A DNA stretch of 34,205 nt, from the IMG/VR virus record IMGVR_UViG_2579778753_000004. One strand, given 5' to 3'. Shown here piece by piece: positions 1-34,205 of the stretch. The notes beneath the pieces are model-generated. The model was not told the origin of the DNA. It saw only the letters and a list, made by a program, of their open reading frames with translations, and searched no databases. Origin of the DNA: a virus. Its lineage: Duplodnaviria > Heunggongvirae > Uroviricota > Caudoviricetes. Within the stretch, counting starts at the first letter, position 1, and each line of letters opens with the position of its first letter. The position numbers and the translations under genes are program-made.

Positions 1-188
1 AATTTTGCGACCACGGTGCTTAACAAACTGGCGGAGAAGCTGGCCAAAGACCAGAACGGCGCAGATATTCCTGACCCGGCGCTCTTTGTCAAAAACCTTG
101 GTTTGGGAGATGCGAGCGGATACGTTGGTAGGCTGCTAAAAATACAGGTATTCACTGCCAGCGGGACAGTGACAAAAACGCCAGGCGC
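1..188. repeat. Left copy of inverted repeat (IR-L), coding, truncated by window edge
   Basis: Positions 1-188 are the exact reverse complement of 1681-1868 by hand alignment; identity stops at 189/1680. Both copies encode the same peptide NFATTVLNKLAEKLAKDQNGADIPDPALFVKNLGLGDASGYVGRLLKIQVFTASGTVTKTPGA. Confidence 0.9.
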
Positions 189-771
189 AAAAAAATGGCG
201 AATTAAATGTCTCGGTGGGGGGGGCGGCAGTTCAGCTGCACCGGCAACGGGTAGTAACGAGGTTTCCGTGAGTAACGGGGGCGGCGCAGGGGCATATGCT
301 GAGGGCATTTATGACGTATCGTCAATAACAACGGCGTCAGTCGTCATCGGTTCAGGCGGTGCAGGAGGAACGGCGGATTCAATATACGGCGCTGACGGCG
401 GAGCTAGCTCAGTTGGTTCGTTTATTTCATCGCCCGGCGGGAAAGTTGGATTACCCGCCGGCCCGGCAAACCCACCATTTCAGCCCGTGGCCAATACTAA
501 CAGCGATGGCCCGACTGGGTGGAATATTGTCGGCTCATCTGGAGCAGGGGCAGAACCAGCCGTAGCTGTTACATATAGCTATGCCGCTGGCTCGCGTGGT
601 TCAAATAGTATATTTGGGGTAGGCGGATCGATTCCTGCAATTAATGACCCGGCAAATCCCGGTGGGGGCTATGGTTCTGGAGCATCCGGCTGTTCGAATG
701 GCTCATCCCAACCAGCTAAATCAGGCGCAGCGGGACGCCCGGGAATCGTAATCATTGAGGAGCTGGCATAA
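1..771 (+). CDS. Alternative tail-fibre C-terminal module (silent orientation, 5'-partial, Gly-rich tip)
   Basis: Reading frame is open from position 1; the first 63 codons are the IR copy of the fibre constant region, then a unique Gly/Ser-rich C-terminus. No own start context; it would join the fibre N-terminus only after inversion. Confidence 0.6.
   Translation, partial: NFATTVLNKLAEKLAKDQNGADIPDPALFVKNLGLGDASGYVGRLLKIQVFTASGTVTKTPGAKKWRIKCLGGGGGSSAAPATGSNEVSVSNGGGAGAYAEGIYDVSSITTASVVIGSGGAGGTADSIYGADGGASSVGSFISSPGGKVGLPAGPANPPFQPVANTNSDGPTGWNIVGSSGAGAEPAVAVTYSYAAGSRGSNSIFGVGGSIPAINDPANPGGGYGSGASGCSNGSSQPAKSGAAGRPGIVIIEELA
85..110. other. Putative serine-invertase crossover site (hix/gix-like), left
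   Basis: TTTGTCAAAAACCTTGGTTTGGGAGA; its reverse complement shares the AAACCAAGGTTTTTGA core with hixL as I recall it (TTCTTGAAAACCAAGGTTTTTGATAA). Confidence 0.55.
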
Positions 772-953
772 TGAGTAATTATGCGCTAGTTAAAAATGGC
801 GTCGTTGAAAATGTTGTTGTATGGGATGGCACTGGAGACATTTTCGATGATTATATTACTGTGAATATTGACGACATATCGGCTGGTATCGACTGGACAT
901 ATGACGGAGAGGCATTTGCCCCTCCGCCAGAAATTACTCCGCAGGAGGCGTAG
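771..953 (+). CDS. Small protein coupled to the alternative fibre tip (putative cognate assembly chaperone)
   Basis: ATG overlaps the TAA of the upstream module (ATAATGA); 60 aa; converges on the 3' end of the minus-strand assembly gene. Confidence 0.4.
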   Translation: MSNYALVKNGVVENVVVWDGTGDIFDDYITVNIDDISAGIDWTYDGEAFAPPPEITPQEA

Positions 954-1365
954 GCCATTCAATATCTGGCGCACCGGAAGTATCGACCAGCTCCAGTGCG
1001 TCCAGATAATCCAGCCACAAATTATATTGCACCAGTTCCTCACCTTTCAGGCGACCAATCGCCGCTTTACCAGGCCATTGCTTACTGTTTATGTATTCGT
1101 TGACCTGATTAATCAATTGCTGCTTTTTCAGTTCGGCTGCGGCAATTTGTTCCTCATGAGTTGGCGGTGGAATATCAATCCATGCAGGCATTCCGTCGAT
1201 GACACCTCTGTATTTTCCTTCTGGTGCTTCCTTCATAAATTCGGCAGCAACAGTGTCGTCAATTTCGATTCCATCATCGGGCCATTCGCCGGATTCCTGA
1301 TAAGCGATTTTAAGCTCCACAGGGAAAAACGCATTTTTATCGGCACTGAAAATATATTTCTGCAT
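934..1365 (-). CDS. Tail fibre assembly protein (lambda Tfa / Mu U family)
   Basis: C-terminus ...LVDTSGAPDIEWPTPPAE resembles the conserved Tfa C-terminus; sits immediately downstream of the fibre gene. Confidence 0.75.
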   Translation of the reverse strand: MQKYIFSADKNAFFPVELKIAYQESGEWPDDGIEIDDTVAAEFMKEAPEGKYRGVIDGMPAWIDIPPPTHEEQIAAAELKKQQLINQVNEYINSKQWPGKAAIGRLKGEELVQYNLWLDYLDALELVDTSGAPDIEWPTPPAE

Positions 1366-1367
1366 TT

Positions 1368-2258
1368 CTACCGTCCTATCGAAATATAACTGAATCTGTA
1401 TTGCTGTGAGATATCACTGGTTGCCACACGCCACGCTGAATTACTGATATGTTCAAAATTTACAGACAAAACCTGCGGGGCAGGAATCGACGGGTCTGAC
1501 TGAACGGCATCAGACATAACACTGACTGAAACCATCGGCTGATTAGGGAATGGTATAGGGAAGTGTCCACTGATAAAGCGGGTCGTGTTTCCTGCAAAAG
1601 TGCCAAACTGAACAATATATCCACCTGGTAGCCTGAACCATCCCGAACCAGAAGCGAATGCTCCCATATCCGGTATCTGAGCGCCTGGCGTTTTTGTCAC
1701 TGTCCCGCTGGCAGTGAATACCTGTATTTTTAGCAGCCTACCAACGTATCCGCTCGCATCTCCCAAACCAAGGTTTTTGACAAAGAGCGCCGGGTCAGGA
1801 ATATCTGCGCCGTTCTGGTCTTTGGCCAGCTTCTCCGCCAGTTTGTTAAGCACCGTGGTCGCAAAATTCGGATCGTTACCGAGGGCATCCGCCAGCTCTT
1901 TAAGCGTATCCAGCGTCTCAGGGGCGCTGCCTGCAAGCGCTGCAAGTGCTTTGGCCACAAACTCAGTCGTCGCCAGCTTCTTGCTGTTATCGCTATTTGC
2001 AGGCGTGGGCGCTGTTGGCGTGCCGGTGAATGTCGGGCTGGCTTTCGGTGCGTACTGGGTATGCGGGTCTGCTGCCGCGATGTGTTTCGCAAGATCAGAA
2101 CCGCCTTTTTCAACCTGTTGCTTCAGGTACAGCGTGCGGCTGGCCAGTTGTTTACCCTGACGGTTAGAAATTCCGTCAGGCCCACCCAGAACGGGGTCAG
2201 AGACCTCAATCTGGTAGATGCCTTCTTCCCACTGCGGGGTTTCAGGTAGGTTTGCCAT
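1368..2258 (-). CDS. Tail fibre protein, currently expressed variant
   Basis: 296 aa; contains the TLDTLKELADALGNDPNFATT motif typical of fibre shafts; spans IR-R and a unique C-terminal tip. Confidence 0.8.
   Translation of the reverse strand: MANLPETPQWEEGIYQIEVSDPVLGGPDGISNRQGKQLASRTLYLKQQVEKGGSDLAKHIAAADPHTQYAPKASPTFTGTPTAPTPANSDNSKKLATTEFVAKALAALAGSAPETLDTLKELADALGNDPNFATTVLNKLAEKLAKDQNGADIPDPALFVKNLGLGDASGYVGRLLKIQVFTASGTVTKTPGAQIPDMGAFASGSGWFRLPGGYIVQFGTFAGNTTRFISGHFPIPFPNQPMVSVSVMSDAVQSDPSIPAPQVLSVNFEHISNSAWRVATSDISQQYRFSYISIGR
1681..1868. repeat. Right copy of inverted repeat (IR-R), inside the expressed tail-fibre gene
   Basis: Reverse complement of 1-188; may extend past 1868 because the partner is cut by the window start. 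Confidence 0.9.
1759..1784. other. Putative serine-invertase crossover site (hix/gix-like), right
   Basis: TCTCCCAAACCAAGGTTTTTGACAAA, the inverted partner of 85-110, lying inside IR-R. Confidence 0.55.
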
Positions 2259-2839: not shown

Positions 2840-3935
2840 CGGACACCCCGGTCATGTTAAGAGTGATCGCCGTGCAGTTTGCCCATTCGTTTTCTGCCAC
2901 CACCTTCAGCACCGGTGTCACCAGTTCGACCTGGTAGACCCCGGCAACGGACAGCACGCTGATAATCTGGCTGGGGACAATATCGCGCCCCAGCGTGGCG
3001 GTACGGGACGCTACCCAGTTCTGTATGGCGCTGTTGGCGTTGTCCTTTATAGAGTTAGCATCCTGGTCACGATAGATAGTGATGTTGGCTTCAATGGCGT
3101 AATCCACCTGCACAGGTGTTTTAGCCCGCACGGTATCAGTGAGCGGCCTGACTTTTTCGTCCGAGCATAAACTCTCTACAAGCGTAAGGATGCTGTCGTC
3201 CGGCAAGCCGGTGCTGAGCAGCGGATACAGTTCTACAGTGCCGGGAACCGGGGAAAGCACGGCAACATCGACAATATTGGGATGGGCCTGCATGGCATGA
3301 AAGCGGTATGCCATACGGCTTCCGGCGTTGGTGAATGATTCCGGGGCCAGTTTGATACGCTCGCGGAGCCTGTCATTGTCTTCCTGCTCAGAACCGCCAG
3401 AACTGGCCGCCATATTGGTCACCTGCAGGTCGACGTTATCAATCTCATCGAGCAACTGACGGACCTGCGCAGGCTGCCAGCCGTTGCCTGCGGCTCCCGG
3501 CTCGGTACAGGTGGCCGTGGCATTGACAAGCAGCAATCCGGCTTTCAGCACTACGTCCGTATCGGTTGCAAAAATAATGCTGTCGGAAGCGCTGACGCGG
3601 GTACCTGCCGGAATCAGCACATCAATGGCCAGTTCCTCATCCACGGAGAACTGGAGCGTGGTGGTGGCAGGCTGCGCGGCCAGTCGGTATACACCAACCA
3701 GTTCACCGAGGTAATCAATCATCGGCTCACGGGCAAAGGCGACCAGATTCTGTTTGGCCGCTTCCTGCGCCGCCACCCTGACCAGCATTTCGCGGTATGC
3801 CCACAGGTCAATCAACAGGCGCTCAGCCTGAGCGGGGTATAGCGTCTTGCCAGTTGCGGCTTCGTACTGTGCAATCATTTCAGCCGTGATTTTGTCAGCA
3901 TCACGTTCAATAAAATCGGGTTCTGTCAGCGCCAT
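2832..3935 (-). CDS. Baseplate J-like protein (P2 gpJ / Mu gp47 family)
   Basis: 367 aa, position and size; overlaps neighbours by a few nt. Confidence 0.7.
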   Translation of the reverse strand: MALTEPDFIERDADKITAEMIAQYEAATGKTLYPAQAERLLIDLWAYREMLVRVAAQEAAKQNLVAFAREPMIDYLGELVGVYRLAAQPATTTLQFSVDEELAIDVLIPAGTRVSASDSIIFATDTDVVLKAGLLLVNATATCTEPGAAGNGWQPAQVRQLLDEIDNVDLQVTNMAASSGGSEQEDNDRLRERIKLAPESFTNAGSRMAYRFHAMQAHPNIVDVAVLSPVPGTVELYPLLSTGLPDDSILTLVESLCSDEKVRPLTDTVRAKTPVQVDYAIEANITIYRDQDANSIKDNANSAIQNWVASRTATLGRDIVPSQIISVLSVAGVYQVELVTPVLKVVAENEWANCTAITLNMTGVSDG

Positions 3936-4273
3936 AGCAACTCCTGAGTCCGGGGTTGTCCGTCAGAGCCTTTCCAGCTCACCCGGAGCGTAAGATGTTC
4001 GCCGTCGACGGCGGGTTTAACCGACATAAGCTGGCAGCGAGGCTCCCAGCGGCGAATGGCATCGACGGATTCGCGCACCACATGCGGAATAGCCCGGTCA
4101 ATAGGCCAGTCGATATAAAGGTGCAGATTGCTGCCGAACTCCGGGCGATGCGGGTCGCTGCCGCGAGGAGTACGCAGGATGATTTGAATGGCCTGCCAGA
4201 TATCATCCAGCCCCCGGACGATTTCGCCAGGGGCCTGCAGAGCCGGTTGCCAGAATACTGAGGTTGTTTTCAT
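3926..4273 (-). CDS. Baseplate wedge protein, GPW/gp25 family
   Basis: 115 aa, gp25-like size and synteny between V-like and J-like genes. Confidence 0.7.
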   Translation of the reverse strand: MKTTSVFWQPALQAPGEIVRGLDDIWQAIQIILRTPRGSDPHRPEFGSNLHLYIDWPIDRAIPHVVRESVDAIRRWEPRCQLMSVKPAVDGEHLTLRVSWKGSDGQPRTQELLWR

Positions 4274-4327
4274 GGGGGCAGTATTGCCCCTGTGCGGGAA
4301 CGCCGATATTAAAGGCGTTTAAGAAGG

Positions 4328-4840
4328 TCAGTGGGAATGGTGATTAGAGTTCGGGCCGTCAGAGAGCATGCTGCCTGTCGAGTGGGCATTGCCGTTGATT
4401 TCAAGGTTGCCGTTCACCGTGGTGGTGTCAGCGGTCAAATCAATGGTTTTCCCCTTCAGGCTGATACCCACTGCAACCTCGATCACCACATGCTCGATAC
4501 CACCTTTGACTGTCAGCGTATGGGTCGCACGGTTATAGCTGAACTCTGCGCCATCCGCGTATTTCGTGCCCCGGACATGTTTGTCGCTGAACGGCGGTTT
4601 ATCGACTTCTGAGTACACCGCGCCCAGAATGACACCATCCTCGCCGTTGGCATCGAGCAGCACTTCAACCTGCTCCCCCACGTCAGGGAGCCAGTAATCC
4701 TTGTTATCCTGGGTATTGCGCTGCAGCACGTTAAGCCAGTTAGTGCGCAGGTTATCGCATTCCGGCAGACGAACGCGGGCCTGAACCTTGTCGGCATCGA
4801 CGGCGCTGACCGTACCGACCTGACGAGTGACGCCTGTCAT
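4328..4840 (-). CDS. Baseplate spike/assembly protein V-like
   Basis: 170 aa, gpV-like, followed by W and J homologues. Confidence 0.7.
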   Translation of the reverse strand: MTGVTRQVGTVSAVDADKVQARVRLPECDNLRTNWLNVLQRNTQDNKDYWLPDVGEQVEVLLDANGEDGVILGAVYSEVDKPPFSDKHVRGTKYADGAEFSYNRATHTLTVKGGIEHVVIEVAVGISLKGKTIDLTADTTTVNGNLEINGNAHSTGSMLSDGPNSNHHSH

Positions 4841-6009
4841 TATTTTTTCTCCTTTATTACCGTGGACGTGCTGCCGTCCGGTTTATAGACGGTCAGCGTC
4901 TGGGTTTTTCCGGTCTTTTTACCTTTCTTCGCTTTGCCCTGCGTAACCGGCCCTCGTGCCACTTCCAGTTCGGTGATGTAGCCGCTGTTACGGTCAAACG
5001 CATGGCGGGCAGTAGTTATCAGCCATGGCCCGGATAACTGACCAAAACCCACCAGTTCAATTTTGTTGCCTGCAGTCAACTGAGGCGTCCCCATCAGCGT
5101 CAGCGAGCCGTTCTGCTGGTATTCGTTATGCCTGGCCAGCGCCGAATCTGCTTTAATCCGGGCGCTGTCCGGATCACTGACGCGGCTGTTGACCTTCAGT
5201 GAGTCGGCACTGGTGACCTTACCGCCTTTGGTTTGTTTGTCGCTTTCGCTGGTACCGCCATCAGCTTCATAAACGATCAGCTTTTTATCGCTGCTCTTCT
5301 GGTGTTTTACCTTCGCGGATTTGTAGACGCGGTTGATGGTGTCACGCAGGGAAAAGCTGTCCACATCCTGCGGCTTTAACTGCCTGATCGGCTCCTGACC
5401 GCGTAACGTGGCAAGATGAGAAAAAACCAGCTGGTCGCTGACCACTTTCACGGCATAACCATACTCGCTGGCCAGTCGGCGCAGGAAGCCCACGTCCGTT
5501 TCAGCATACTGGGTCACCCGGTCAATTTTGATGGACTCAATACTGCCAACCAGCTTCAGCTGATGCTTTTTGGCAATCCGTCCGGCGATGGCCGCCAGCG
5601 TGGTGCTCTCGAAACCACGACTGGATTTTGTCCGCAGGGCGTTGTTGACCGACGTGGCCACGCCCCGGATAGCGACAACGGACGCGGGCGAACTCACCTC
5701 GATCTCGTCTATAGAGAACGTACCGCAGGACAGCAGCTTCTCGCCCTGATAACCCATTTTCAGCGTCAGCGTGTCACCCTTGCCCGGATACCACTTATCC
5801 AGCCAGCGGCCATCGGTGTCGTCCAGTTCCACCTCAATGGTATCGGACTCGCTTTTGATGTTATCGCTGTAGGTTACGCGGGTGACATAGGGGGCGATAT
5901 CGGTGGTGATGTTCTTCTGCAGATACCATAGCGTGAACACCGGACTCAGAACATCGCTGACGCCGGTTAACGCTGATGCGGCTTGTGCAGGGCTGTTTAT
6001 CTCAGCCAT
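4840..6009 (-). CDS. Late control D-like tail protein (P2 gpD / Mu P family)
   Basis: 389 aa, downstream of tape measure and U/X-like genes as in P2/Mu. Confidence 0.7.
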   Translation of the reverse strand: MAEINSPAQAASALTGVSDVLSPVFTLWYLQKNITTDIAPYVTRVTYSDNIKSESDTIEVELDDTDGRWLDKWYPGKGDTLTLKMGYQGEKLLSCGTFSIDEIEVSSPASVVAIRGVATSVNNALRTKSSRGFESTTLAAIAGRIAKKHQLKLVGSIESIKIDRVTQYAETDVGFLRRLASEYGYAVKVVSDQLVFSHLATLRGQEPIRQLKPQDVDSFSLRDTINRVYKSAKVKHQKSSDKKLIVYEADGGTSESDKQTKGGKVTSADSLKVNSRVSDPDSARIKADSALARHNEYQQNGSLTLMGTPQLTAGNKIELVGFGQLSGPWLITTARHAFDRNSGYITELEVARGPVTQGKAKKGKKTGKTQTLTVYKPDGSTSTVIKEKK

Positions 6010-23529: not shown

Positions 23530-23632
23530 ATCAACCCACAGGTATGCACTGTGAGCCGACCAGGGTTCAGTCAGTCTCGCGAGACCAGACTAGCCTGCCA
23601 TATTTTCATTGATTGCAAAAGGCTTACGGATA

Positions 23633-24403
23633 ATGAAAGAACAATCTTTACCCATCGTCCCATGGATTGGCGGTAAACGTCGTCTGGCGAAGCATATTTT
23701 ACCATTGTTTCCGGCCCATACCTGCTATGTGGAGCCGTTCTGCGGGGCAGCTGCGCTCTATTTCCTAAAGACTCCCAGCAAGACCGAAGTCATTAACGAT
23801 ATCAACGGGGAACTGGTGAACCTCTATCGGGTGGTCAAGCATCATCTGGAAGAATTTATTCGCCAGTTCAAATGGGCGCTGGTCAGCCGTCAGATTTACA
23901 AATGGTTGCAGGATACGCCGGAAGAAACGCTCACCGACATTCAGCGGGCGGCCCGGTTCTACTACCTGCAGAAACAGGCATTTGGCGGCAAGGTCGCCGA
24001 TCACACATTCGGTACCTCTACAACCAGTGCGCCGCGCTTCAATTTGCTGCGTATTGAGGAAGAACTGTCGATGGCACACCTGCGCCTGTCGAGAACGCTG
24101 ATAGAGCATCTGGACTGGCACCAGTGCATAGAGCGATATGATCGCCCGCATACGCTGTTCTACTGTGACCCACCGTACTGGGGAACGGAAGGCTATGGTG
24201 TGGAGTTCGGGCTGGAAAACTATGATCACATGGCAGATTTAGCGCGAAGGATCAAAGGGAAGATGATTATATCAGTGAACGATATCCCGGAAATGCGGCA
24301 GGTATTCAACGGTCTGAACATGCAGTCGGTTGATATCAGCTACAACCTTAAGGTAACAGGCAAACCCAGCCCGAAGAAAGAGCTGGTAATTTGTAATTTT
24401 TGA
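23633..24403 (+). CDS. DNA N6-adenine methyltransferase, Dam-like (orphan)
   Basis: N-terminal PWIGGKRRL and catalytic DPPY (YCDPPYWGTEGYG) motifs; start taken at ATG 23633 (the ORF track starts at a TTG at 23609). Confidence 0.8.
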   Translation: MKEQSLPIVPWIGGKRRLAKHILPLFPAHTCYVEPFCGAAALYFLKTPSKTEVINDINGELVNLYRVVKHHLEEFIRQFKWALVSRQIYKWLQDTPEETLTDIQRAARFYYLQKQAFGGKVADHTFGTSTTSAPRFNLLRIEEELSMAHLRLSRTLIEHLDWHQCIERYDRPHTLFYCDPPYWGTEGYGVEFGLENYDHMADLARRIKGKMIISVNDIPEMRQVFNGLNMQSVDISYNLKVTGKPSPKKELVICNF

Positions 24404-24420
24404 AAGAGGTAGTTAAAGGT

Positions 24421-24443
24421 GGTGGTGCATCTGCAGCACCACC
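24421..24443. terminator. Candidate terminator hairpin between convergent dam and lipoprotein genes
   Basis: GGTGGTGC-ATCTGCA-GCACCACC, 8-bp GC-rich stem; on the minus strand it is followed by UUUAACUACCUCUUU. Confidence 0.4.
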
Positions 24444-24450
24444 TAAACAT

Positions 24451-24984
24451 TTAATCCTGCCTTGGACAAGTCCAATAATCATTATCTGGCTCTGGTGAAT
24501 AAGCTTTCAAACAACCTGCTCGCGGGGTCTTACCATCATCTGTCATAGGAACTTTTTCCTTATCAAGTTTCACGGTCAGGTCTCCACCAGGAACATCCGT
24601 TTTATCGAAAAAAACAGCCTGACATGCTGATTTAGATATTTTCACTTCGTGGGCATTATTTGATATGAACAAATAACAATTATGACCAGAGGCTATGTAG
24701 TCACTTGGAATATTATTTTCGTCTTTAATATGAAACTGCACCGTTGTCACCGGGCGTTCGCTATCCTCGGATACTTCGACTTTTTCAAAACTGTCCGCGT
24801 ACTTATCCAGGCCGGGGAGTTGTTGGCGAATAAACGGTAATTCGCGATTTACAACCGGATTATCTGTTTCAACGCTAAAAACCGCGTGCTCCTTAGCTGT
24901 GGTGGACGTATCAGCAGGATCGGTATTATCTCCACACCCAGATAAAACAAATATCAACGGTAAAAATAATTTGCGCATAGTCAT
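24451..24984 (-). CDS. Secreted lipoprotein, low-GC accessory gene downstream of the repressor
   Basis: MTMRKLFLPLIFVLSGC lipobox LSGC; a hand count over 100 nt gave about 44% GC versus visibly GC-richer flanks; same strand as, and 36 bp downstream of, the repressor gene; RBS GAGGT. Confidence 0.7.
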   Translation of the reverse strand: MTMRKLFLPLIFVLSGCGDNTDPADTSTTAKEHAVFSVETDNPVVNRELPFIRQQLPGLDKYADSFEKVEVSEDSERPVTTVQFHIKDENNIPSDYIASGHNCYLFISNNAHEVKISKSACQAVFFDKTDVPGGDLTVKLDKEKVPMTDDGKTPRAGCLKAYSPEPDNDYWTCPRQD

Positions 24985-25019
24985 GTCCTTATACCTCTAA
25001 TGTTCTTAATAGGAACAGA

Positions 25020-25430
25020 TTAACCCGTATTTTTTAATCTTTCGAACGCTGCGGACAGCTCCTTAAGCTGTTTTTCCATATCAATCATTCGCTGTTTTTC
25101 CTCAGCGCCTCGCAGCAACTCTTTTCGCACCTCTGGCTCCAGTTGGTTGAGCAGCTCCAATAACTTCAGATCAGACTGGTTGAAATGCTGCTCCTGATTA
25201 GCTGGCTGTGCTTTCTCTACCCCAACAGCTTCCCCTTTACCAGTAAGTAGCCAATCTATTGATATGTTCAAATGGGTGCTTAGCGCAACAAGAGCCTCTG
25301 CATTAGGTTCTCTCTCTCCACGCAGATAGTTTTGAAGTGAGCGATATGGAATTTTTGACAAGTCTGACAATGCCTTAATTGTCAGACCCTTAGCATCCAT
25401 CGCTTCGCGCAATCTCTCTTTTATACTCAT
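25020..25430 (-). CDS. Prophage repressor (XRE/Cro-CI type HTH, C-terminal coiled coil)
   Basis: Start at ATG 25430 (MSIKERLREAMDAKGLTIKALSDLSKIPYRSLQNYLRGE...); divergent from the early operon. Confidence 0.75.
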   Translation of the reverse strand: MSIKERLREAMDAKGLTIKALSDLSKIPYRSLQNYLRGEREPNAEALVALSTHLNISIDWLLTGKGEAVGVEKAQPANQEQHFNQSDLKLLELLNQLEPEVRKELLRGAEEKQRMIDMEKQLKELSAAFERLKNTG

Positions 25431-25446
25431 TTGAACATATCTCAAT

Positions 25447-25474
25447 TTGACATACCCGTTTGGGTGCGTACAAT
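25447..25474 (+). promoter_or_regulatory. Early promoter (Pe-like) with overlapping operator repeats
   Basis: -35 TTGACA (25447-25452), 16-bp spacer, -10 TACAAT (25469-25474); inverted TTGGGT/ACCCAA pair brackets the -10 and a further ACCCAA lies downstream. Confidence 0.6.
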
Positions 25475-25518
25475 AGACCCAATAGAGTACATCATAACCC
25501 AACAGGAACACGGTGCAT

Positions 25519-25743
25519 ATGAACAAACAACAAGTTCGGGCACGGCTGGTTGAAAGAGGCAGTAGCTTGCGCCAGTTCGCGCTTAACGCGGGCTATGAGC
25601 CACGAACAGTCACCCAGGCTGTCAGCCGCTGGGCAGGCAAAAGCGAACTTCCACGCGGTCGTTTGACTTATCGGATTTTGCGAGACCTTTCGGTCGCAAT
25701 AGGCAAAGAAGTTACCCCCGGCATCCTCAAGGAGGCGTCATGA
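25519..25743 (+). CDS. ner: Ner-like DNA-binding protein
   Basis: 75 aa ...LRQFALNAGYEPRTVTQAVSRWAG...; first gene of the early operon, RBS AGGAA. Confidence 0.7.
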   Translation: MNKQQVRARLVERGSSLRQFALNAGYEPRTVTQAVSRWAGKSELPRGRLTYRILRDLSVAIGKEVTPGILKEAS

Positions 25744-26045
25744 GTAAACCAAATACATCAAGCTCAGGTACCCGTATTTTGCGTGTCCTTAAGGCTTTAC
25801 GCGGTCACGCTCTGAACGGTGTTTCTAACGGCGAGCTGGCGTCAGCTCTGGGCGAGTCCCCGGCGAATATCAATCGGGCGCTCAATACCCTTATCGAAGA
25901 AGGACTGGCCCTGAAACTGGATAACGGGCGTTTTGCCCCAGGAGTCCAGCTCTTACAAATCGCCATGGCGCACAGTACCGAAATGGCGCGGGCGCAGGAT
26001 CGTATCAATGAAATTAACCAGCGTGTTATGGCTGGTAGTCGCTAA
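25740..26045 (+). CDS. Small winged-helix DNA-binding protein
   Basis: 101 aa, HTH-like ILRVLKALRGHALNGVSNGELASALGESPANINRALNTLIEEGLA; ATGA overlap with ner; RBS AAGGAGG. Confidence 0.55.
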   Translation: MSKPNTSSSGTRILRVLKALRGHALNGVSNGELASALGESPANINRALNTLIEEGLALKLDNGRFAPGVQLLQIAMAHSTEMARAQDRINEINQRVMAGSR

Positions 26046-26054
26046 GGAGTTGAA

Positions 26055-26963
26055 ATGGGACGCACAAAATCACAACCAGTTGAACTAGTGGAAGATGCAC
26101 CGCTGACCGATGGTCTCAGTGTCAGTCTTAATGCTATGTCCGAACATCGCCTCGAAATCATGCAGCAGTTTGGTGATGGCCTGCCGTATGAACGTGATCG
26201 TATTGTCCATGAAACACGTTTTTATATGGCTCAGAGTGCTGAAGCCATGCTGGAGGCGGGTAAACGACTGGTAATTCTCAAAGAAAATGAACCACATGGT
26301 GACTTCATCGACATCGTTGAGTCTCAGTTGTCCCTATCCAAACGTACCGCGCAGGTGATGATGCAAGCATCCCTCAAATATTTGTCTCCCAAGCTTGAAC
26401 CAAAAGCGCAAGCGCTTGCGCTTTTGGGTAAAACAAAGCTGTTTGAGTTGATGACGGAAGATGACGAAGACCTCGTCGAATTAGCCGATGGCGGCACGAT
26501 TGCTGGTATGAGCCTCGATGATATTGATCGCATGACAAGCCGCGAACTGAAAGCGGCCCTACGCGAAGCGCGTGAAACCAACGCAGCACAACAGCGCGTG
26601 CTTGCCGACAAAAACGAAAAAATCGACTCGCTCTCCACAAAACTGGAGAAGAAATCCCGTATCCAACCGCCCAAGCCTGACGAAGAGGTGAAGAAGCTGC
26701 GTGCGGAAGTTACAGCGTTAGCGGTTGAGGCGGAATCTGCCATCGCCGTTCGACTGTCCAGCGCCTTTGAGACCCTGTGCGCATACTGTGCTGAAAATAT
26801 GATTGATACCCCCAGAGACTTTATGGCCGGTCTGGTCTGCCAGTTGGAAAGCACCGCGCGTAGCCTGCGCTCCACATTTGACCTGCCGGACGAGCCGACA
26901 GGCAACGCCGCCCCTTCATGGCTGACTGACCCGACGCCAGAGATTAACGGGCAGGAGGCATAA
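26055..26963 (+). CDS. Conserved early protein of unknown function (DUF3102-like, from memory)
   Basis: 302 aa, coiled-coil middle region, RBS AAGGAG; lies between Ner and transposase. Confidence 0.5.
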   Translation: MGRTKSQPVELVEDAPLTDGLSVSLNAMSEHRLEIMQQFGDGLPYERDRIVHETRFYMAQSAEAMLEAGKRLVILKENEPHGDFIDIVESQLSLSKRTAQVMMQASLKYLSPKLEPKAQALALLGKTKLFELMTEDDEDLVELADGGTIAGMSLDDIDRMTSRELKAALREARETNAAQQRVLADKNEKIDSLSTKLEKKSRIQPPKPDEEVKKLRAEVTALAVEAESAIAVRLSSAFETLCAYCAENMIDTPRDFMAGLVCQLESTARSLRSTFDLPDEPTGNAAPSWLTDPTPEINGQEA

Positions 26964-26966
26964 CCC

Positions 26967-28736
26967 ATGAGTGCCGCCCTGACTGAACGACTGGTTTATG
27001 TTGCCCGCGCGGCACGTGACGCGGGGCATGGTAAGCGTGGTGCGATATATGATGCCGCCTGCGCCGAACTGGGCATTTCCCGCGCCACCCTGCTGCGCAA
27101 GCTGAAGGAGGTATCAGTGACTGACAAACGTAAAAAACGCGCCGATGCCGGGCGCAGTGCCCTGAGCCGCGACGAAGCCGCGCTGATATCTGCCACGCTG
27201 CGCGAGGCCACCCGTAAGAACGGTAAGCGCCTGTATTCCATCGCGGATGCGGTGGAGACCCTGCGGTCAAACGGCTTTATCACTGCTGGCAGAACGGACG
27301 AGGCCACAGGCGAGTTTTTCCCGCTGTCCGAGGACACCATCAGCCGCGCCCTGCGGAACTATGGTCTGCACCCGGAACAGCTTGACGCACCGGCCCCGTC
27401 GTCCGAGATGGCCAGCCTGCATCCCAATCACGTCTGGGAGATTGATGCCTCACTTTGTACGCTTTACTACCTGAGCAACGGCCATAAAGGGTTGCAGGTG
27501 ATGGACAGCTCGAAGTTCTACAAGAACAAGCCTGCCAACATCGCCCGCATCGCCAGTGACCGCGTGTGGAGTTACGAGATTACCGACCATACCAGCGGCT
27601 GGATTTACGTTGAGTACGTGATGGGTGCGGAATCTGGTGAGAACCTCTGTTCTGTGCTTATCAACGCCATGCAGGAGCGCGGCGGCGCGGACGTGCTGCA
27701 CGGCGTGCCGAAAATACTCTACCTTGATCCCGGTTCGGCGAACACCGCTGGCATGACGAAAAACATGTGCCGCTCGCTGGGCATCAATCTGATAGCGCAC
27801 AAGCCGCATAACGCCCGCGCCACCGGGCAGGTGGAAAAGGCCCGTGACATTATCGAACGTAAACTGGAGCCGGGTCTCAAATTCCAGCCGGTTCATAGCC
27901 TGGACGAACTGAACGCGCTGGCGGTGAAATGGCGCAGCCACTTTAACGCCACGGCGGTCCACAGCCGCCACGGTAAAACCCGCACGGATATCTGGCTGAA
28001 GATTACTGCTGACCAGCTGAAAAAAGCGCCATCCGTTGAGGTTTGCCGCGAACTGGCGGTGGCCGCACCGGAACTCCGTAAGGTCACACCAAAACTGCGC
28101 GTCTCGTTCCGGGGCAATGAGTTTGACGTTTCGACGGTACCGGGCGTACTGGTCGGCGAAAAACTGATGATTACCCGTAACCCGTGGCGCAGCGATGTGG
28201 CGCAGGTGGTGCTGACCGGTGAGGACGGTCACGAGACGTTCTTCCTGGTCGAGGAGGTCAGAAAGAACGAGTTCGGCTTTGCCGAAAGCGCGGCGGTATT
28301 TGGCGAAAACTACAAAGCCCTGCCGGAGACCCCGGCGCAGACGGCGGCAAAAGAAATCGAAGAGCTGGTTACGGGCACCGATAACGCCACCGATGCAGCT
28401 GCTGCACGCAAGGCGAAGGCGCTGCCGTTCGGCGGGCGACTTGACCCGTACAAACATATCGACGACACCACGCTTCCTGCCTATATGCCGAAGCGCGGTC
28501 AGGCTTCAGACGTGCGCGGGCCGCGTATTGAGCAGCGTCCGCTGACCCATGTGGAGGCGGCGAAAGCCCTGCGCGAGAAGTTTGGCGCTAACGGCCATAT
28601 CTGGACGCCGGAACATTACCGCCAGTTAACGGCGCAGTACCCGGATGGCGTACCTGAAGCCGCGCTGGATGAGGTGATGGTTACCCTGACCACTCCGGCC
28701 CGCAACAGCGTTATCAGCATCGTTAACGGTAACTGA
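26967..28736 (+). CDS. DDE transposase (MuA-like)
   Basis: 589 aa; candidate catalytic Asp at ...VWEIDASL... and ...LYLDPGSANT...; followed by the ATPase gene; RBS AGGAGG. Confidence 0.85.
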   Translation: MSAALTERLVYVARAARDAGHGKRGAIYDAACAELGISRATLLRKLKEVSVTDKRKKRADAGRSALSRDEAALISATLREATRKNGKRLYSIADAVETLRSNGFITAGRTDEATGEFFPLSEDTISRALRNYGLHPEQLDAPAPSSEMASLHPNHVWEIDASLCTLYYLSNGHKGLQVMDSSKFYKNKPANIARIASDRVWSYEITDHTSGWIYVEYVMGAESGENLCSVLINAMQERGGADVLHGVPKILYLDPGSANTAGMTKNMCRSLGINLIAHKPHNARATGQVEKARDIIERKLEPGLKFQPVHSLDELNALAVKWRSHFNATAVHSRHGKTRTDIWLKITADQLKKAPSVEVCRELAVAAPELRKVTPKLRVSFRGNEFDVSTVPGVLVGEKLMITRNPWRSDVAQVVLTGEDGHETFFLVEEVRKNEFGFAESAAVFGENYKALPETPAQTAAKEIEELVTGTDNATDAAAARKAKALPFGGRLDPYKHIDDTTLPAYMPKRGQASDVRGPRIEQRPLTHVEAAKALREKFGANGHIWTPEHYRQLTAQYPDGVPEAALDEVMVTLTTPARNSVISIVNGN

Positions 28737-28746
28737 GGAGGAAGGC

Positions 28747-29913
28747 ATGCTGGTACTGAAGCAACAACTGAAAGAGGCCCGCATCCCGCAGGCGGTGGTG
28801 GCAAGAGCCGTCGCCGTTTCCGAGGCCACGCTGGCCCAGATTGTGAACCATAACGAGTGGCCACGCACCAGCCCCGAAGAGGTACGCCAGCGTCTGGCGT
28901 TGTATCTGGAAAGTAAGGGGATTGATACAGCGAAAAGTTTTGATGCTGCACAGGGCGCTGTCACGCCCCGTACAGCGGGTACTACCGATAAAACCAACCT
29001 CAGTGAGGAAGAGAACATGTTACTCAAAAAGCAGGTGTTATTTCCAGCAACCAAAAAAGCGTTTGGCCTTTTCCGTGATCCGTTCGCCGATGAAGCCATG
29101 CAGGGCGCGGACGATGTGTTCACCACGCCGGATATCCGCTACGTGCGTGAGGCGCTGTTCCAGACCGCCCGCCATGGTGGCTTTCTGGCGGTTATCGGCG
29201 AGTCCGGTGCGGGTAAATCCACGCTGCGCCGCGACCTGATTGAACGCGTCAACCGCGAGAACGCGCCGGTGATTGTAATTGAGCCATACATCATCGCCAT
29301 GGAAGACAACGACGTGAAGGGCAAAACCCTGAAGGCGGCAGCTATCGCCGAGGCCATCATCAGCACCATCGCGCCGCTGGAGAGTATCAAACGCAGCCAG
29401 GACGCCCGCTTCCGCCAGTTGCACCGCGTCCTGAAGGACAGCAGTCAGGCGGGTTTCAGCCACGTTCTGGTGATTGAGGAGGCCCACAGCCTTCCCATTC
29501 CGACGCTGAAGCACCTTAAACGCTTCTTCGAACTGGAGTCCGGCTTCAAAAAACTGCTGTCCATCGTGCTGATTGGCCAGCCTGAACTGGCGGACAAACT
29601 GTCCGAACGCAACATGGAAGTCCGTGAGGTCGTCCAGCGCTGCGAGGTGGTTGAATTGCTGCCGCTGGACAACAGCCTCGAAGAGTTTCTGACGTTCAAA
29701 CTGCAACGTGCCGGTAAGCAGCTGGCCGACATCATGGACGCCAGCGCAGTGGAAGCCATCCGCGCCCGTCTGAGCAATCTGGGTGGTAGCCGTAAAAGCA
29801 TGGTCAGCCTGCTGTATCCGCTGGCCGTCAGTAACCTGGTGATAGCCGCCATGAATCTGGCTGCTGAAATCGGGGTTCCGCAGGTCAACGCCGACGTCGT
29901 CAAAGGAGTTTAA
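28747..29913 (+). CDS. Transposition helper AAA+ ATPase (MuB-like)
   Basis: 388 aa, Walker A GESGAGKST, Walker B-like HVLVIEEAH; immediately downstream of the transposase. Confidence 0.8.
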   Translation: MLVLKQQLKEARIPQAVVARAVAVSEATLAQIVNHNEWPRTSPEEVRQRLALYLESKGIDTAKSFDAAQGAVTPRTAGTTDKTNLSEEENMLLKKQVLFPATKKAFGLFRDPFADEAMQGADDVFTTPDIRYVREALFQTARHGGFLAVIGESGAGKSTLRRDLIERVNRENAPVIVIEPYIIAMEDNDVKGKTLKAAAIAEAIISTIAPLESIKRSQDARFRQLHRVLKDSSQAGFSHVLVIEEAHSLPIPTLKHLKRFFELESGFKKLLSIVLIGQPELADKLSERNMEVREVVQRCEVVELLPLDNSLEEFLTFKLQRAGKQLADIMDASAVEAIRARLSNLGGSRKSMVSLLYPLAVSNLVIAAMNLAAEIGVPQVNADVVKGV

Positions 29914-29915
29914 TC

Positions 29916-30185
29916 ATGAAATCCATCGCCGATATCAACCAGCAGATGAACAAGGTGCAGTCCGCCATTATGGCGCTCAACGCCATGAACACTACCGTGC
30001 AGAGCGTCATGATTGCTGGCAGTAAGCCGGTTATCCGTATCGCCCGCAACGGGCACTGTGCCCGCCTGCTGGAGCAGGGCAAAGCGAGTTATACCCATGT
30101 TGGCCATGACGGCTCAGGGCGCTTCCGTCAGGGCGTCTTTGAGTTGCATGGCTGCCGTATTACCTGGTCAGAGTCGTTACATTAA
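29916..30185 (+). CDS. Hypothetical early protein
   Basis: 89 aa, RBS AAAGGAG, tightly coupled to B. Confidence 0.5.
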   Translation: MKSIADINQQMNKVQSAIMALNAMNTTVQSVMIAGSKPVIRIARNGHCARLLEQGKASYTHVGHDGSGRFRQGVFELHGCRITWSESLH

Positions 30186-30202
30186 CCATAAGGTGAACAG
30201 AG

Positions 30203-30814
30203 ATGAGCGAAGTAAATAAAGAAAACTACATGAAAGACCGCAAGGGGCGTCTGGTGCCGGTTGACCAGGTGTCTGACTATGACCTTGCGATGGACTCTTT
30301 CGTTAAAGAACAGGTTGTCGCCGCGAAGGTTAAACGCGATGAACTCAGTGACTTCAAGCGTCGTGCCTTTGACGAGTGCTATGCCTGGCTTGACCTTGTG
30401 GCCGAGAAGTACGGCAGAACGCGTGGCGGTGCCAAAGGCAACGTGACCTTCAGCAGCTTCGACGGTGCTCAGCAGATCACCATCCGCGTGCAGGAAACCC
30501 TGACCTTCGGGCCAGAGCTGCAGATTGCCAAAGACCTGATAGACGAGTGCGTCACCGAGTGGTCGGAAGGCGCGAACGCCAACCTGCGGGCCATCATCAG
30601 CGATGCTTTTCAGGTGGACAAAGAGGGCCAGCTTAATACCGGACGTATTCTTTCCCTGCGCCGCGTCAAGATTCAGGACGAGCGCTGGAACCGGGCAATG
30701 GAGGCCATATCGGAATCACTGCAGGTGGCAATGTCCAAAACCTATATTAATTTCCGGGAGAAAGATAAACACGGGAAGCTAATTAATATTCCGTTAGATA
30801 TCGCTGCCATTTAA
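30203..30814 (+). CDS. Conserved Mu-like early protein (DUF3164-like, from memory)
   Basis: 203 aa, RBS AGGTGA. Confidence 0.5.
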   Translation: MSEVNKENYMKDRKGRLVPVDQVSDYDLAMDSFVKEQVVAAKVKRDELSDFKRRAFDECYAWLDLVAEKYGRTRGGAKGNVTFSSFDGAQQITIRVQETLTFGPELQIAKDLIDECVTEWSEGANANLRAIISDAFQVDKEGQLNTGRILSLRRVKIQDERWNRAMEAISESLQVAMSKTYINFREKDKHGKLINIPLDIAAI

Positions 30815-33443: not shown

Positions 33444-33514
33444 CTTCCCATGTTGACCCAGTACTTCCCATAATTATCTCACTTATCCCCTGTCATTTAT
33501 CTCAAGTCTAATCA
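33444..33514. repeat. Prophage right terminus with subterminal direct repeats (putative transposase-binding sites)
   Basis: CTTCCCAT at 33444 and 33464 (20-bp period); TTATCTC at 33475 and 33498 (23-bp period); element ends ...AATCA at 33514. Confidence 0.55.
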
Positions 33515-34205
33515 GCTCACGGCCCTGATAGATAACGCCTTTTGAATCGCAAACCACGATGTTATGTTTTTGCAGACCCAGCGCTACCAGCAGGTTCATA
33601 CAGGCGATTGCTGCGGCACCCGCGCCGGAAACCACCATCCGCACGTCGGAGATGTTTTTCTCCACCACGCGCAAGCCGTTGAGGATGGCGGCAGTGCTGA
33701 TGATTGCCGTGCCGTGCTGATCGTCGTGGAATACCGGAATATTCATCCGCTCGCGCAGTTTCTGTTCAATATAGAAACATTCTGGCGCTTTAATGTCTTC
33801 GAGGTTGATTCCGCCGAAGGTCGGTTCGAGCGCAGCGACAACTTCAATAAATTTGTCCGGGTCGAGTTCATCAACTTCAATGTCAAATACATCAATCCCG
33901 GCGAATTTCTTAAACAGAACGCCCTTGCCTTCCATCACCGGTTTGCCAGCCAGCGCGCCAATGTTGCCTAACCCCAGCACCGCCGTACCGTTAGAGATCA
34001 CCGCCACCAGGTTACCGCGCGCGGTATATTTGTAGGCTTTTAACGGGTCTTTTTCGATTTCAAGACAAGGTGCGGCAACGCCTGGTGAGTAGGCCAGCGC
34101 CAGATCGCGCTGCGTTGCCAGAGGCTTGGTTGGAGAAACCTGGATTTTCCCTGGAACTGGAAATTCATGGAAATCAAGTGCACTTTGTTTTAACTGGTCA
34201 TCCAT
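33483..34205 (-). pseudogene. maeB: maeB 5' fragment (NADP-dependent malic enzyme) interrupted by the prophage
   Basis: The translation matches the N-terminal ~229 residues of E. coli MaeB as I recall them ([53 protein letters not shown]...GVIYQGRE), then diverges into [10 protein letters not shown]-stop read from phage DNA. Host-derived DNA is 33515-34205. Confidence 0.8.

Follow-up and report, generated by a model that had tools for sequence, protein, structure and literature searches.

A palindrome inside its own gene as the candidate binding site of a DUF3102 protein encoded ahead of the transposase in B3/BcepMu-type phages

What is the role of the two genes that separate the ner-like gene from the transposase gene in a transposable prophage of Enterobacterales? 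The question is raised by the virus record IMGVR_UViG_2579778753_000004, a stretch of 34,205 nucleotides (hereafter the window) that consists almost entirely of one prophage, whose late genes occupy the minus strand as far as about 23.4 kb and whose early operon begins on the plus strand at about 25.5 kb. A preliminary description had placed there a winged-helix protein of 101 amino acids (aa) and a coiled-coil protein of 302 aa, and the list of open reading frames (ORFs) bears out their exact coordinates (25740-26045 and 26055-26963; Table 1). Both ORFs start with ATG, and RefSeq and GenBank annotate the same two genes in records that are 100% and 98% identical. We propose that the 302-aa protein, a member of the DUF3102 family, is likely to be a dimeric, sequence-specific DNA-binding protein whose cognate site would be a palindrome embedded in its own gene.

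The DUF3102 gene holds the longest perfect palindrome of the window, made of the arms CCAAAAGCGCAAGC and GCTTGCGCTTTTGG and spanning codons P116 to G125. It is the only perfect palindrome of the window with an arm of at least 8 (its arm is 14), and 200 first-order Markov simulations of the window gave longest arms of 6 to 11. Orthologous genes have palindromes at the same codons: CAAAACGGACAAC and GTTGTCCGTTTTG in Pseudomonas phage B3, TTCAAAAGCGGCGTT and AACGCCGCTTTTGAA in BcepMu, CCAAAACGCTCAGC and GCTGAGCGTTTTGG in Escherichia phage PhiKM. Further types are AAAACGGACAGC (L016 type) and CAAATGTGCCAGC (L015 type), L-numbers being the labels of the compared loci. Overall, an arm of at least 11 was found at the aligned codons in 136 of 151 homologous genes, 80 added viral contigs included, and in 100 of 145 loci (mean length 9 kb) this is the longest perfect palindrome of the whole locus. 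The outer arms are common to the family (CAAA[A/T]; A-tract CAAAA/TTTTG) and the inner bases differ.

The dyad symmetry is maintained by paired changes. Among 47 distinct 32-mers, which come from genes selected for the palindrome (arm at least 10), symmetric positions were complementary in 94.1% of cases versus 71.1 ± 1.2% in shuffles, changes were present on both arms at 10 of 13 pairs, and 126 compensatory cells were counted. The covariation score was 0.564, versus 0.156 in shuffles (0/500), and sliding the partner columns gave 0.04-0.09. Symmetry extends through the centre (100% at position 1, 99% at position 2), where the codon that spans the dyad is GCG or ACG and its four-fold-degenerate third base is G in 69 of 70 haplotypes.

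It could be that such a sequence works as RNA, an mRNA hairpin governing stability, processing, pausing or translation and unrelated to the specificity of the protein. As RNA, the palindrome would indeed form a stem of 12 bp closed by a GCGC loop (-22.1 kcal/mol, z = -3.1 versus shuffles), and the compensatory changes keep this pairing. However, the symmetry runs through the dyad centre, where a loop needs none; the mismatches at positions 1-12, counted from the pair tables (about 12 G.T, 8 A.C and 17 others), show no G.U preference; and the bases of the palindrome are predicted by residues of a helix encoded at least 45 nt upstream, as shown below. For these three reasons, a double-stranded DNA site read by a symmetric dimer is favoured over an RNA hairpin. 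In addition, no U-tract follows the stem, and we consider a function as RNA element improbable.

The domain that would read this site was delimited by profile and structure comparison. The 302-aa protein matches PF11300 with 30.2 bits (cut-off 24.4) over residues 64-171; 51 of the 56 aligned relatives match it too, and the family counts about 1,500 clusters at 50% identity. Its AlphaFold2 (AF2) model, for which alignments of database representatives served as input, has a predicted local distance difference test score (pLDDT) of 92.2 and is entirely helical, with an N-terminal helix, a globular bundle (residues 47-145) containing a predicted helix-turn-helix (HTH), an antiparallel hairpin (162-247), a last helix and a disordered tail (pLDDT below 75 beyond residue 280). 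The earlier label of coiled-coil protein thus holds for the hairpin; the N-terminal half is the globular helical DUF3102 domain. The hairpin is presumed from the model to be a dimerisation or partner-binding module. Residues 173-279 are kept even in JBD25-type proteins, whose N-terminal half is unrelated, and the tail has a conserved PxW motif (P287 is invariant in alignment A5, P-x-W is visible in alignment A1).

Comparison with known structures gave no parentage for this fold: a PDB sequence-profile search with the DUF3102 alignment returned no meaningful match, and Foldseek with the 302-aa model found nothing significant in PDB and only uncharacterised DUF3102 proteins in BFVD. A SAP/HeH-like motif, LDDIDRMTSRELKAALREA, is tentatively assigned, its matches being placed by eye; among 56 family members, three had weak SAP matches (best E 0.05) and ten matched DUF6887 (best E 2e-4). 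Longer homologues (430-545 aa) add only Cys-rich N-terminal extensions without a Pfam match. In P0183, P0213 and P0219 (526-537 aa), these extensions comprise 200-280 residues with CxxC-like cysteine pairs, also without a Pfam match.

To relate protein and site, mutual information (MI) between residues and palindrome bases was calculated over 76-79 distinct haplotypes, residues encoded by the palindrome itself being excluded. The highest values fall on the start of the predicted recognition helix, namely residue 100 with half-site base -7 (normalised MI 0.94-1.00), residue 97 with base -6 (0.90), residue 101 with base -4 (0.89) and residue 98 with base -5 (0.74), all of these figures surely being inflated by shared ancestry and by linkage inside one island. 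Residue 100 predicts base -7 in all 76 haplotypes: bases -8 to -6 are GCG or ACG with Gln100 (41/41 haplotypes), CGG or CGC with Arg100 (19/19), and GTG or ATG with Val100 or Ala100 (9/9). The covarying residues occupy positions 1, 2, 3, 5 and 6 of the recognition helix, the usual base-contacting face, and are of the types Q, R, H, S, T and Y. In prophages of Serratia, Iodobacter and Brenneria, the helix ERTARL(M/V)MQA occurs together with CGGCAAGC and the preceding helix differs. Residues 161-167 co-vary with base -2. The position-specific pattern is what would be expected of a recognition helix and its operator. In the proposed complex, residues 96-101 would read half-site positions -4 to -8, and the protein would probably dimerise through its coiled-coil hairpin.

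Covariation of this sort might also arise if the DUF3102 domain were a protein-protein specificity module, an anti-repressor or an oligomerisation partner of the repressor, and the palindrome were bound by a host protein or by the 101-aa winged helix-turn-helix (wHTH) protein. Repressor fusions that resemble the protein of their own phage (see below) could reflect hetero-oligomerisation, antirepressor genes neighbour the DUF3102 gene in Firmicute phages, and the protein looks rich in Asp and Glu, as judged by eye. Against this, wHTH residues show only background covariation with the palindrome (normalised MI peaks at 0.39), and the wHTH protein is 97-100% identical across palindrome types. The covarying residues of the DUF3102 protein are of base-contacting types at the recognition-helix positions just named. 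Intramolecular packing of residue 100 on residue 118 was considered too and is unlikely, since Arg100 coincides with an Arg codon at that place of the palindrome in 19 of 19 haplotypes. A protein-protein module with the site left to another protein therefore appears highly improbable, and we return to the DUF3102 protein as the probable reader of the palindrome.

Helix and site also travel together. Along the gene, the identity profile delimits a mosaic "specificity island" of about residues 82-168, which comprises the HTH, the palindrome and the following helices. In L014-L018 and L064, which include prophages of Intestinirhabdus, Mixta, Trabulsiella, Pseudocitrobacter and Symbiopectobacterium, the island has 53-86% nucleotide identity and its flanks are mostly 87-100% identical. 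The reverse pattern is found in Brenneria and Lelliottia prophages (L019, L026), with 65-85% identity elsewhere and 91-96% aa identity in residues 80-125. The assortment of the island follows neither the repressor/ner region nor the wHTH gene, and within 6 kb on either side no second region was found that partitions the prophages as the island does. Helix and site behave as one unit, an exchangeable specificity cassette that is swapped between near-identical prophages. As anecdotal observations, pairs of intact-looking prophages with differing palindrome and helix types reside together in Pectobacterium colocasium CSR2 (L023/L025) and Serratia sp. Ag1 (L032/L033). A Photorhabdus tasmaniensis pair (L053/L058) has one type common to both, and L058 retains only fragments of transposase and ATPase.

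The same domain has entered some repressors. Four prophages, from Arsenophonus, Symbiopectobacterium and "Candidatus Pantoea" (L043, L045, L051, L054), have at the repressor position a gene for a fusion of DUF3102 with an Xre-type HTH_3 domain. The DUF3102 domain of the fusion is 80-86% identical to the separate protein of its own phage, with the HTH segment identical or nearly so, versus 57-70% to the proteins of the other three phages. The same palindrome recurs inside the fusion gene of L045 (some 1.5 kb away from the first copy), L051 and L054, and L043 has two degenerate copies (arm 7). In lineages with such a fused repressor, the palindrome would serve as an operator too.

Outside transposable phages, DUF3102 genes have a palindrome at the equivalent codons in Bacillus phage 250 (perfect, 24 bp) and on two plasmids, one from Lactiplantibacillus (perfect, 32 bp) and one from Alicyclobacillus (12-bp arms, one mismatch). 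Genes of S. thermophilus and Streptococcus prophages keep 11 of 14 palindrome positions, and in a Staphylococcus phage a 14-bp core remains. The DUF3102 gene of Firmicute temperate phages stands just after cro and before antirepressor or replication genes. Scans of viral contigs with the DUF3102 proteins of the two Firmicute plasmids found no relatives. Since DUF3102 genes and their palindrome are present on plasmids and in Firmicute phages that do not transpose, the basic function cannot be transposition-specific, and any role in transposition would be a lineage-specific use of a family-wide activity.

JBD25-type proteins (L009:3428-4405, L071:5001-5939, L072:5001-5957) have only the C-terminal coiled coil in common with the window protein. 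Their genes have a palindrome at another place, AAAA..G..TTTT with a 1-nt spacer, in an insert before the HTH. L072 is an Enterobacter hormaechei IncFIB plasmid with phage tail genes, in which a divergent pair, 3930-4661(-) and 5001-5957(+), consists of one DUF3102 gene and one JBD25-type relative beside a Mor-family gene; no transposase is annotated in this 10.9-kb stretch.

We then considered the genomic setting of the gene. The element in the window belongs to the BcepMu/B3-type transposable prophages, in Enterobacterales, and its transposase is Tn552/IS481-like: the wHTH and DUF3102 genes directly precede the transposase gene, an HTH_3 repressor gene diverges from them, and after the rve-type transposase gene comes that of an ExeA/AAA_22 ATPase. 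Some E. coli chromosomes, CFS3292 for one, match region 25000-30200 with 100% identity; the figure is 99.9% for "Escherichia phage Phi06_2974 B" and 98.2% for a contig submitted as Klebsiella phage KP12. PhiKM, a phage placed in Bcepmuvirus, has 88.9% nucleotide identity from the transposase onward, over transposase and ATPase. Of 5,426 complete E. coli genomes, 640 contain related prophage DNA.

The order wHTH, DUF3102, transposase, ATPase was observed in 9 phages and in 59 of 59 loci where all four genes could be called. These are the callable copies among 60 genome loci retrieved with the DUF3102 protein, plus phage records; among the 60, every copy long enough to judge keeps the order. They span Gamma- and Betaproteobacteria and one phage deposited as Microcystis phage. 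What varies is the repressor, the ner-like gene and the small genes downstream. No ORF separates the DUF3102 gene from the transposase gene that follows it in 57 of the 59 loci; the two exceptions, PhiKM (105 aa, L003:3656-3973) and a Klebsiella plasmid-borne prophage (238 aa, L071:5932-6648), each have a single ORF in between.

B3 encodes direct orthologues of the pair, ORF14 and ORF13 (58% and 50% aa identity by tblastn), directly upstream of its transposase ORF12, and BcepMu does so with gp12 and gp10 (35% and 40%), upstream of gp09. Position, order and intragenic palindrome are the same as in the window; unlike it, both phages have additional genes between the ner-like and wHTH genes and each has its own palindrome and recognition-helix type. 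BcepMu moreover has the small gene gp11 between the two (L005:7449-7661, minus strand). PM105, phiSHP3, JBD25 and Mae-JY22 have the same pair in the same order. In KS10, whose transposase is D3112-like, a distant BcepMu gp10-like gene lies directly upstream of the transposase gene (PMC2628397). D3112 itself, with a MuA-type transposase, has three ORFs between ner and A.

Because the order is invariant in all intact relatives examined, the pair is an ancestral, conserved core of the B3/BcepMu-type early operon and not an insertion. The preliminary description, which had measured the locus against Mu, was therefore misleading in calling the genes inserted; the element is not of the Mu type, and a reading of the pair as inserted cargo (a moron) is ruled out by the invariant synteny. 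Its further idea that they are extra regulators or accessory transposition factors names the right class, both products being predicted DNA binders and the larger one having a candidate cognate site.

The tight coupling to the operon that it had seen is evident from the junctions. The TGA of the upstream gene (74/76 aa) overlaps the ATG of the 101-aa gene (ATGA, 25740-25743), with AAGGAGG just before; 9 nt separate the 101-aa stop from the 302-aa start, with AAGGAG over the stop; and 3 nt separate the 302-aa stop (26961-26963) from the transposase ATG (26967), preceded by AGGAGG, so that Shine-Dalgarno sequences accompany each start. A strong promoter-like site just upstream of the first early gene is the only sigma-70-type match within 24900-30300, and no terminator-like site was seen on the plus strand within the early operon. 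With this layout the two genes share transcription with the transposase gene and are coupled to it in translation. The palindrome lies about 950 bp downstream of this promoter-like site and about 550 bp upstream of the transposase gene.

The smaller protein is a winged helix, as first described. Pfam HTH_IclR matches it with 28.7 bits (cut-off 22), and a PDB profile search with its family gave as best match the N-terminal domain of TtgV/IclR (2.7e-6), followed by other IclR and MarR proteins. The AF2 model (pLDDT 92.8) has helices 8-19, 30-37 and 41-53, a wing at 57-67 and a helix at 69-99. As in IclR-family proteins such as TtgV, the wHTH domain is followed by a long helix. Unlike them, the protein ends there, at 101 aa in total: helix 69-99 is all that follows the wing, and no Pfam match to the C-terminal effector-binding domain was obtained. 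It is thus a free-standing IclR-type DNA-binding domain, in our reading of the dimer type, rather than a full IclR family member. Between E. coli and Pseudomonas its recognition helix changes very little, so that its target should be conserved. No conserved palindrome was found in or near the wHTH gene, and the sole recurrent inverted repeats are in the operator region about 300 nt upstream.

Taken together, we lean, by a little, towards a picture in which the pair forms the conserved front end of the transposition module: both genes would encode DNA-binding proteins, and the helix/site cassette of the larger one would mark the phage's own genome in cis. The complex of protein and palindrome would, on this account, designate that genome for its own early machinery.

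How the mark would be used is a further question. In Mu, the repressor c and MuA share an operator/enhancer-binding domain. No Mu-specific N-terminal DNA-binding domain was detected in the window transposase, in which only rve and a weak HTH_8 match appeared at E ≤ 0.1. Its alignment to phrog_310 begins at profile position 129 of 696, and it has IS481/IS21-like similarity besides the rve core. The complex, upstream of the transposase gene, might act as an enhancer-like specificity factor, or one comparable to lambda O at ori, and so stand in for the enhancer-binding domain I-alpha that this transposase lacks. Four features favour such a role: the gene abuts the transposase gene in 57 of 59 loci, the coiled coil and tail remain conserved in proteins with a different N-terminal half, the transposase is without an enhancer-binding domain, and a diversifying, exchangeable specificity is expected of a factor that chooses which genome is replicated. 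A positive role of this kind for the adjacent transposase and ATPase is nevertheless proposed tentatively, as a possibility that falls short of probable.

Alternatively, the function may be purely transcriptional. The DUF3102 protein would then sit on an intragenic operator or roadblock and exert negative feedback, possibly by looping, that limits read-through into the transposase and ATPase genes, the wHTH protein being a second early regulator. The site indeed falls within the early operon, between the promoter-like site and the transposase gene; the Firmicute slot after cro and before antirepressor or replication genes is a typical regulatory place; fusions with a second palindrome copy about 1.5 kb away (L045, L051, L054) would give a repression loop; and KorA (about 101 aa) with KorB of IncP plasmids offers a regulatory precedent. 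However, cassette exchange among prophages that are 97-100% identical and have a repressor without the domain is not readily explained in this way. It also leaves unexplained why the gene stays next to the transposase gene in 57 of 59 loci and even in a phage with an unrelated transposase type, and why the coiled coil and PxW tail are kept where the N-terminal domain is replaced. We regard an exclusively transcriptional function as rather unlikely.

Several observations weigh against the proposal of a cis-marking DNA binder with a role in transposition, besides the inflation of the MI values and the selection of the 32-mers mentioned above. No further half-site with at most two mismatches exists in the window, the right end included, so the site is single, and a Mu-type enhancer is more complex. 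The palindrome is about 7 kb from the nearest prophage end. It is degenerate or relocated in PM105, in Lonsdalea, in Staphylococcus and S. thermophilus phages, and in the JBD25 type. The repressor of the window has HTH_3 only and lacks the DUF3102 domain, as in the rest of its lineage. The same palindrome occurs on plasmids and in Firmicute phages that do not transpose, and the protein looks, by eye, rich in Asp and Glu.

Comparison with known systems gives partial parallels. With I-alpha and IAS of Mu, the locus has in common a cis site placed within the early region of the element, and the relatives L043, L045, L051 and L054, unlike the window, also resemble Mu in that the repressor and an early factor beside the transposase share one DNA-binding domain. 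It differs in that the domain is a separate protein of the DUF3102 fold rather than the Mu winged helix, that the site is a single palindrome in coding sequence, far from the ends, that the transposase is Tn552/IS481-like, and that the system is known from sequence alone. In a bolder form, the DUF3102 protein and the palindrome would be a two-part transposition enhancer (or lambda O/ori-like specificity system) of Tn552-type transposable phages that recruits transposase and ATPase through the coiled coil and PxW tail and replaces I-alpha plus IAS, the cassettes would define compatibility or immunity groups and so determine which co-resident prophages can be mobilised by a superinfecting phage, and the family would be an unrecognised class of phage and plasmid proteins that bind sites in their own genes; we hold this extended version to be doubtful.

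The lambda O protein binds dyad-symmetric ori sites within its own gene, and its N-terminal specificity region co-varies with the site among related phages. The DUF3102 gene is similar in having the candidate site in the gene itself, a specificity region that varies together with the site, and a conserved C-terminal part ahead of a gene for the machinery. It is unlike lambda O in having one palindrome versus four iterons and in belonging to a phage that replicates by transposition and has no origin.

A parS site lies inside spo0J of B. subtilis, and KorA is encoded beside KorB. ParB-parS and KorB-OB thus resemble the present locus in having a palindromic site in the protein's own gene (a candidate site here) and, beside it, a small HTH partner, here of 101 aa. 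The proteins are different. No Pfam ParB/Srx or KorB match was obtained among the matches listed for the window protein or the 25 most frequent families in the 56 members (E ≤ 5, where HMMER filters remove most matches beyond about 0.1), the N-terminus consists of one helix and the DUF3102 bundle, there is no ParA partner, a coiled-coil hairpin takes the place of the C-terminal dimerisation domain of ParB, and Foldseek gives no support for a relation. KfrA of IncP and IncU plasmids has an N-terminal DNA-binding domain and a long coiled coil, and binds repeats in its own promoter. The architecture and the setting in the control region of a mobile element are alike, but the KfrA site is in the promoter and not in the gene, and Pfam scans of the window proteins and the 56 family members showed no KfrA_N similarity.

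Table 1. Positions of the early-operon features (window coordinates) and of the repressor fusion genes (coordinates within the labelled loci).
Feature	Position	Strand	Basis
Divergent prophage repressor, 136 aa, Xre/cI-type HTH_3 plus helical C-terminal region	25020..25430	-	Pfam HTH_3 5e-12; NCBIfam RstR/DicA-like; RefSeq: HTH protein
Early-promoter-like site TTGACA-16-TACAAT	25447..25474	+	11/12 positions; just upstream of first early gene
Ner/Cro-position gene, 74 aa, BcepMu gp16-like HTH	25519..25743	+	phrog_8503 5e-35
Stand-alone IclR-type wHTH protein, 101 aa, long C-terminal helix	25740..26045	+	HTH_IclR 1.2e-6; phrog_1368 1.6e-44
DUF3102 protein, 302 aa	26055..26963	+	PF11300; phrog_1748 4.5e-133
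Predicted HTH of DUF3102 domain (helix 81-91, turn, recognition helix 96-109)	26295..26381	+	
Mosaic specificity island	26300..26560	+	identity profile
Perfect 28-bp palindrome, proposed cognate binding site	26400..26427	.	inside DUF3102 gene
SAP/HeH-like motif, tentative	26508..26564	+	matches placed by eye from motif
Antiparallel coiled-coil hairpin (helices 162-203 and 208-247)	26538..26795	+	AF2 model
Conserved PxW motif, disordered C-terminal tail	26913..26921	+	alignments A5 and A1
DDE transposase, rve core, Tn552/IS481-like	26967..28736	+	rve 2.3e-7; IS481-family similarity 1.3e-18, below cut-off
AAA_22/ExeA-like ATPase (MuB analogue)	28747..29913	+	AAA_22 3.4e-20; phrog_296 "DNA transposition protein"
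DUF3102-HTH_3 fusion genes	L043:1172-2302; L045:4199-5179; L051:4199-5179; L054:4198-5115	-	divergent

Some features of the neighbourhood are added here. The gene called ner is only a positional analogue of Ner/Cro and by sequence is closer to BcepMu gp16; besides its phrog match, two matches remain under threshold (Pfam HTH_35 with 17.6 bits, cut-off 25; TIGR04111 BcepMu_gp16 with 29 bits, cut-off 34). A 17-nt inverted repeat, GATATGTTCAAATGGGT and ACTCATTTGAACATATC, 94% complementary, is found at 25261-25277 inside the repressor gene and at 25425-25441 at its start, with a third, partial copy at 25516-25525 at the start of the ner-like gene. These copies are probably operators of the repressor or the ner-like protein. 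A perfect 10-bp inverted repeat with a 6-nt spacer (GTCTGACAAT, ATTGTCAGAC) lies at 25362-25387, in the 5' part of the repressor gene.

Two genes located between the lysis cassette and the repressor gene encode a D12-class (Dam-like) adenine methyltransferase (23609-24403, plus strand) and a lipoprotein-like protein of 177 aa (24451-24984, minus strand). In prophages that are otherwise nearly identical, the lipoprotein/repressor/ner stretch (about 24300-25750) forms a mosaic region of its own. The CFS3292 prophage (L075) is inserted in gadC. Its end nearest the tail-fibre genes (record 2587178-2588734, window 1-1400) has a recombinase-family gene; the tail-fibre-assembly genes next to it are oppositely oriented, an arrangement suggestive of an invertible host-range segment. 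The right flank of the window (33483-34205, a minus-strand ORF) looks unlike CFS3292, where gadC continues on the plus strand, which would mean another insertion site for the window prophage.

DUF3102 proteins, for which no function had been assigned, are widespread; their genes lie on plasmids and in early regions of Proteobacteria and Firmicutes temperate phages. The preliminary description had likewise named none, in agreement with the RNA-seq study of phage Fc02, in which the ORFs of the pE operon are mostly unassigned except transposase A and B and the gemA and mor homologues (PMC9936078). Among literature titles and abstracts mentioning DUF3102 none dealt with function, and no literature on transposable phages combined with IclR was found; for BcepMu together with a palindrome, the one paper found concerns the Sodalis genome. 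The family now gains a testable candidate activity, an HTH that would read a palindrome embedded in its own gene, with an apparent rule linking residue 100 to base -7. For the large B3/BcepMu group, whose transposition biochemistry is essentially unstudied, the pair of protein and palindrome is a candidate for the missing cis element and specificity factor. The exchange of cassettes and the capture of the domain by repressors suggest a second, immunity-like layer besides the classical repressor, and the type of palindrome may serve as a typing marker for these prophages.

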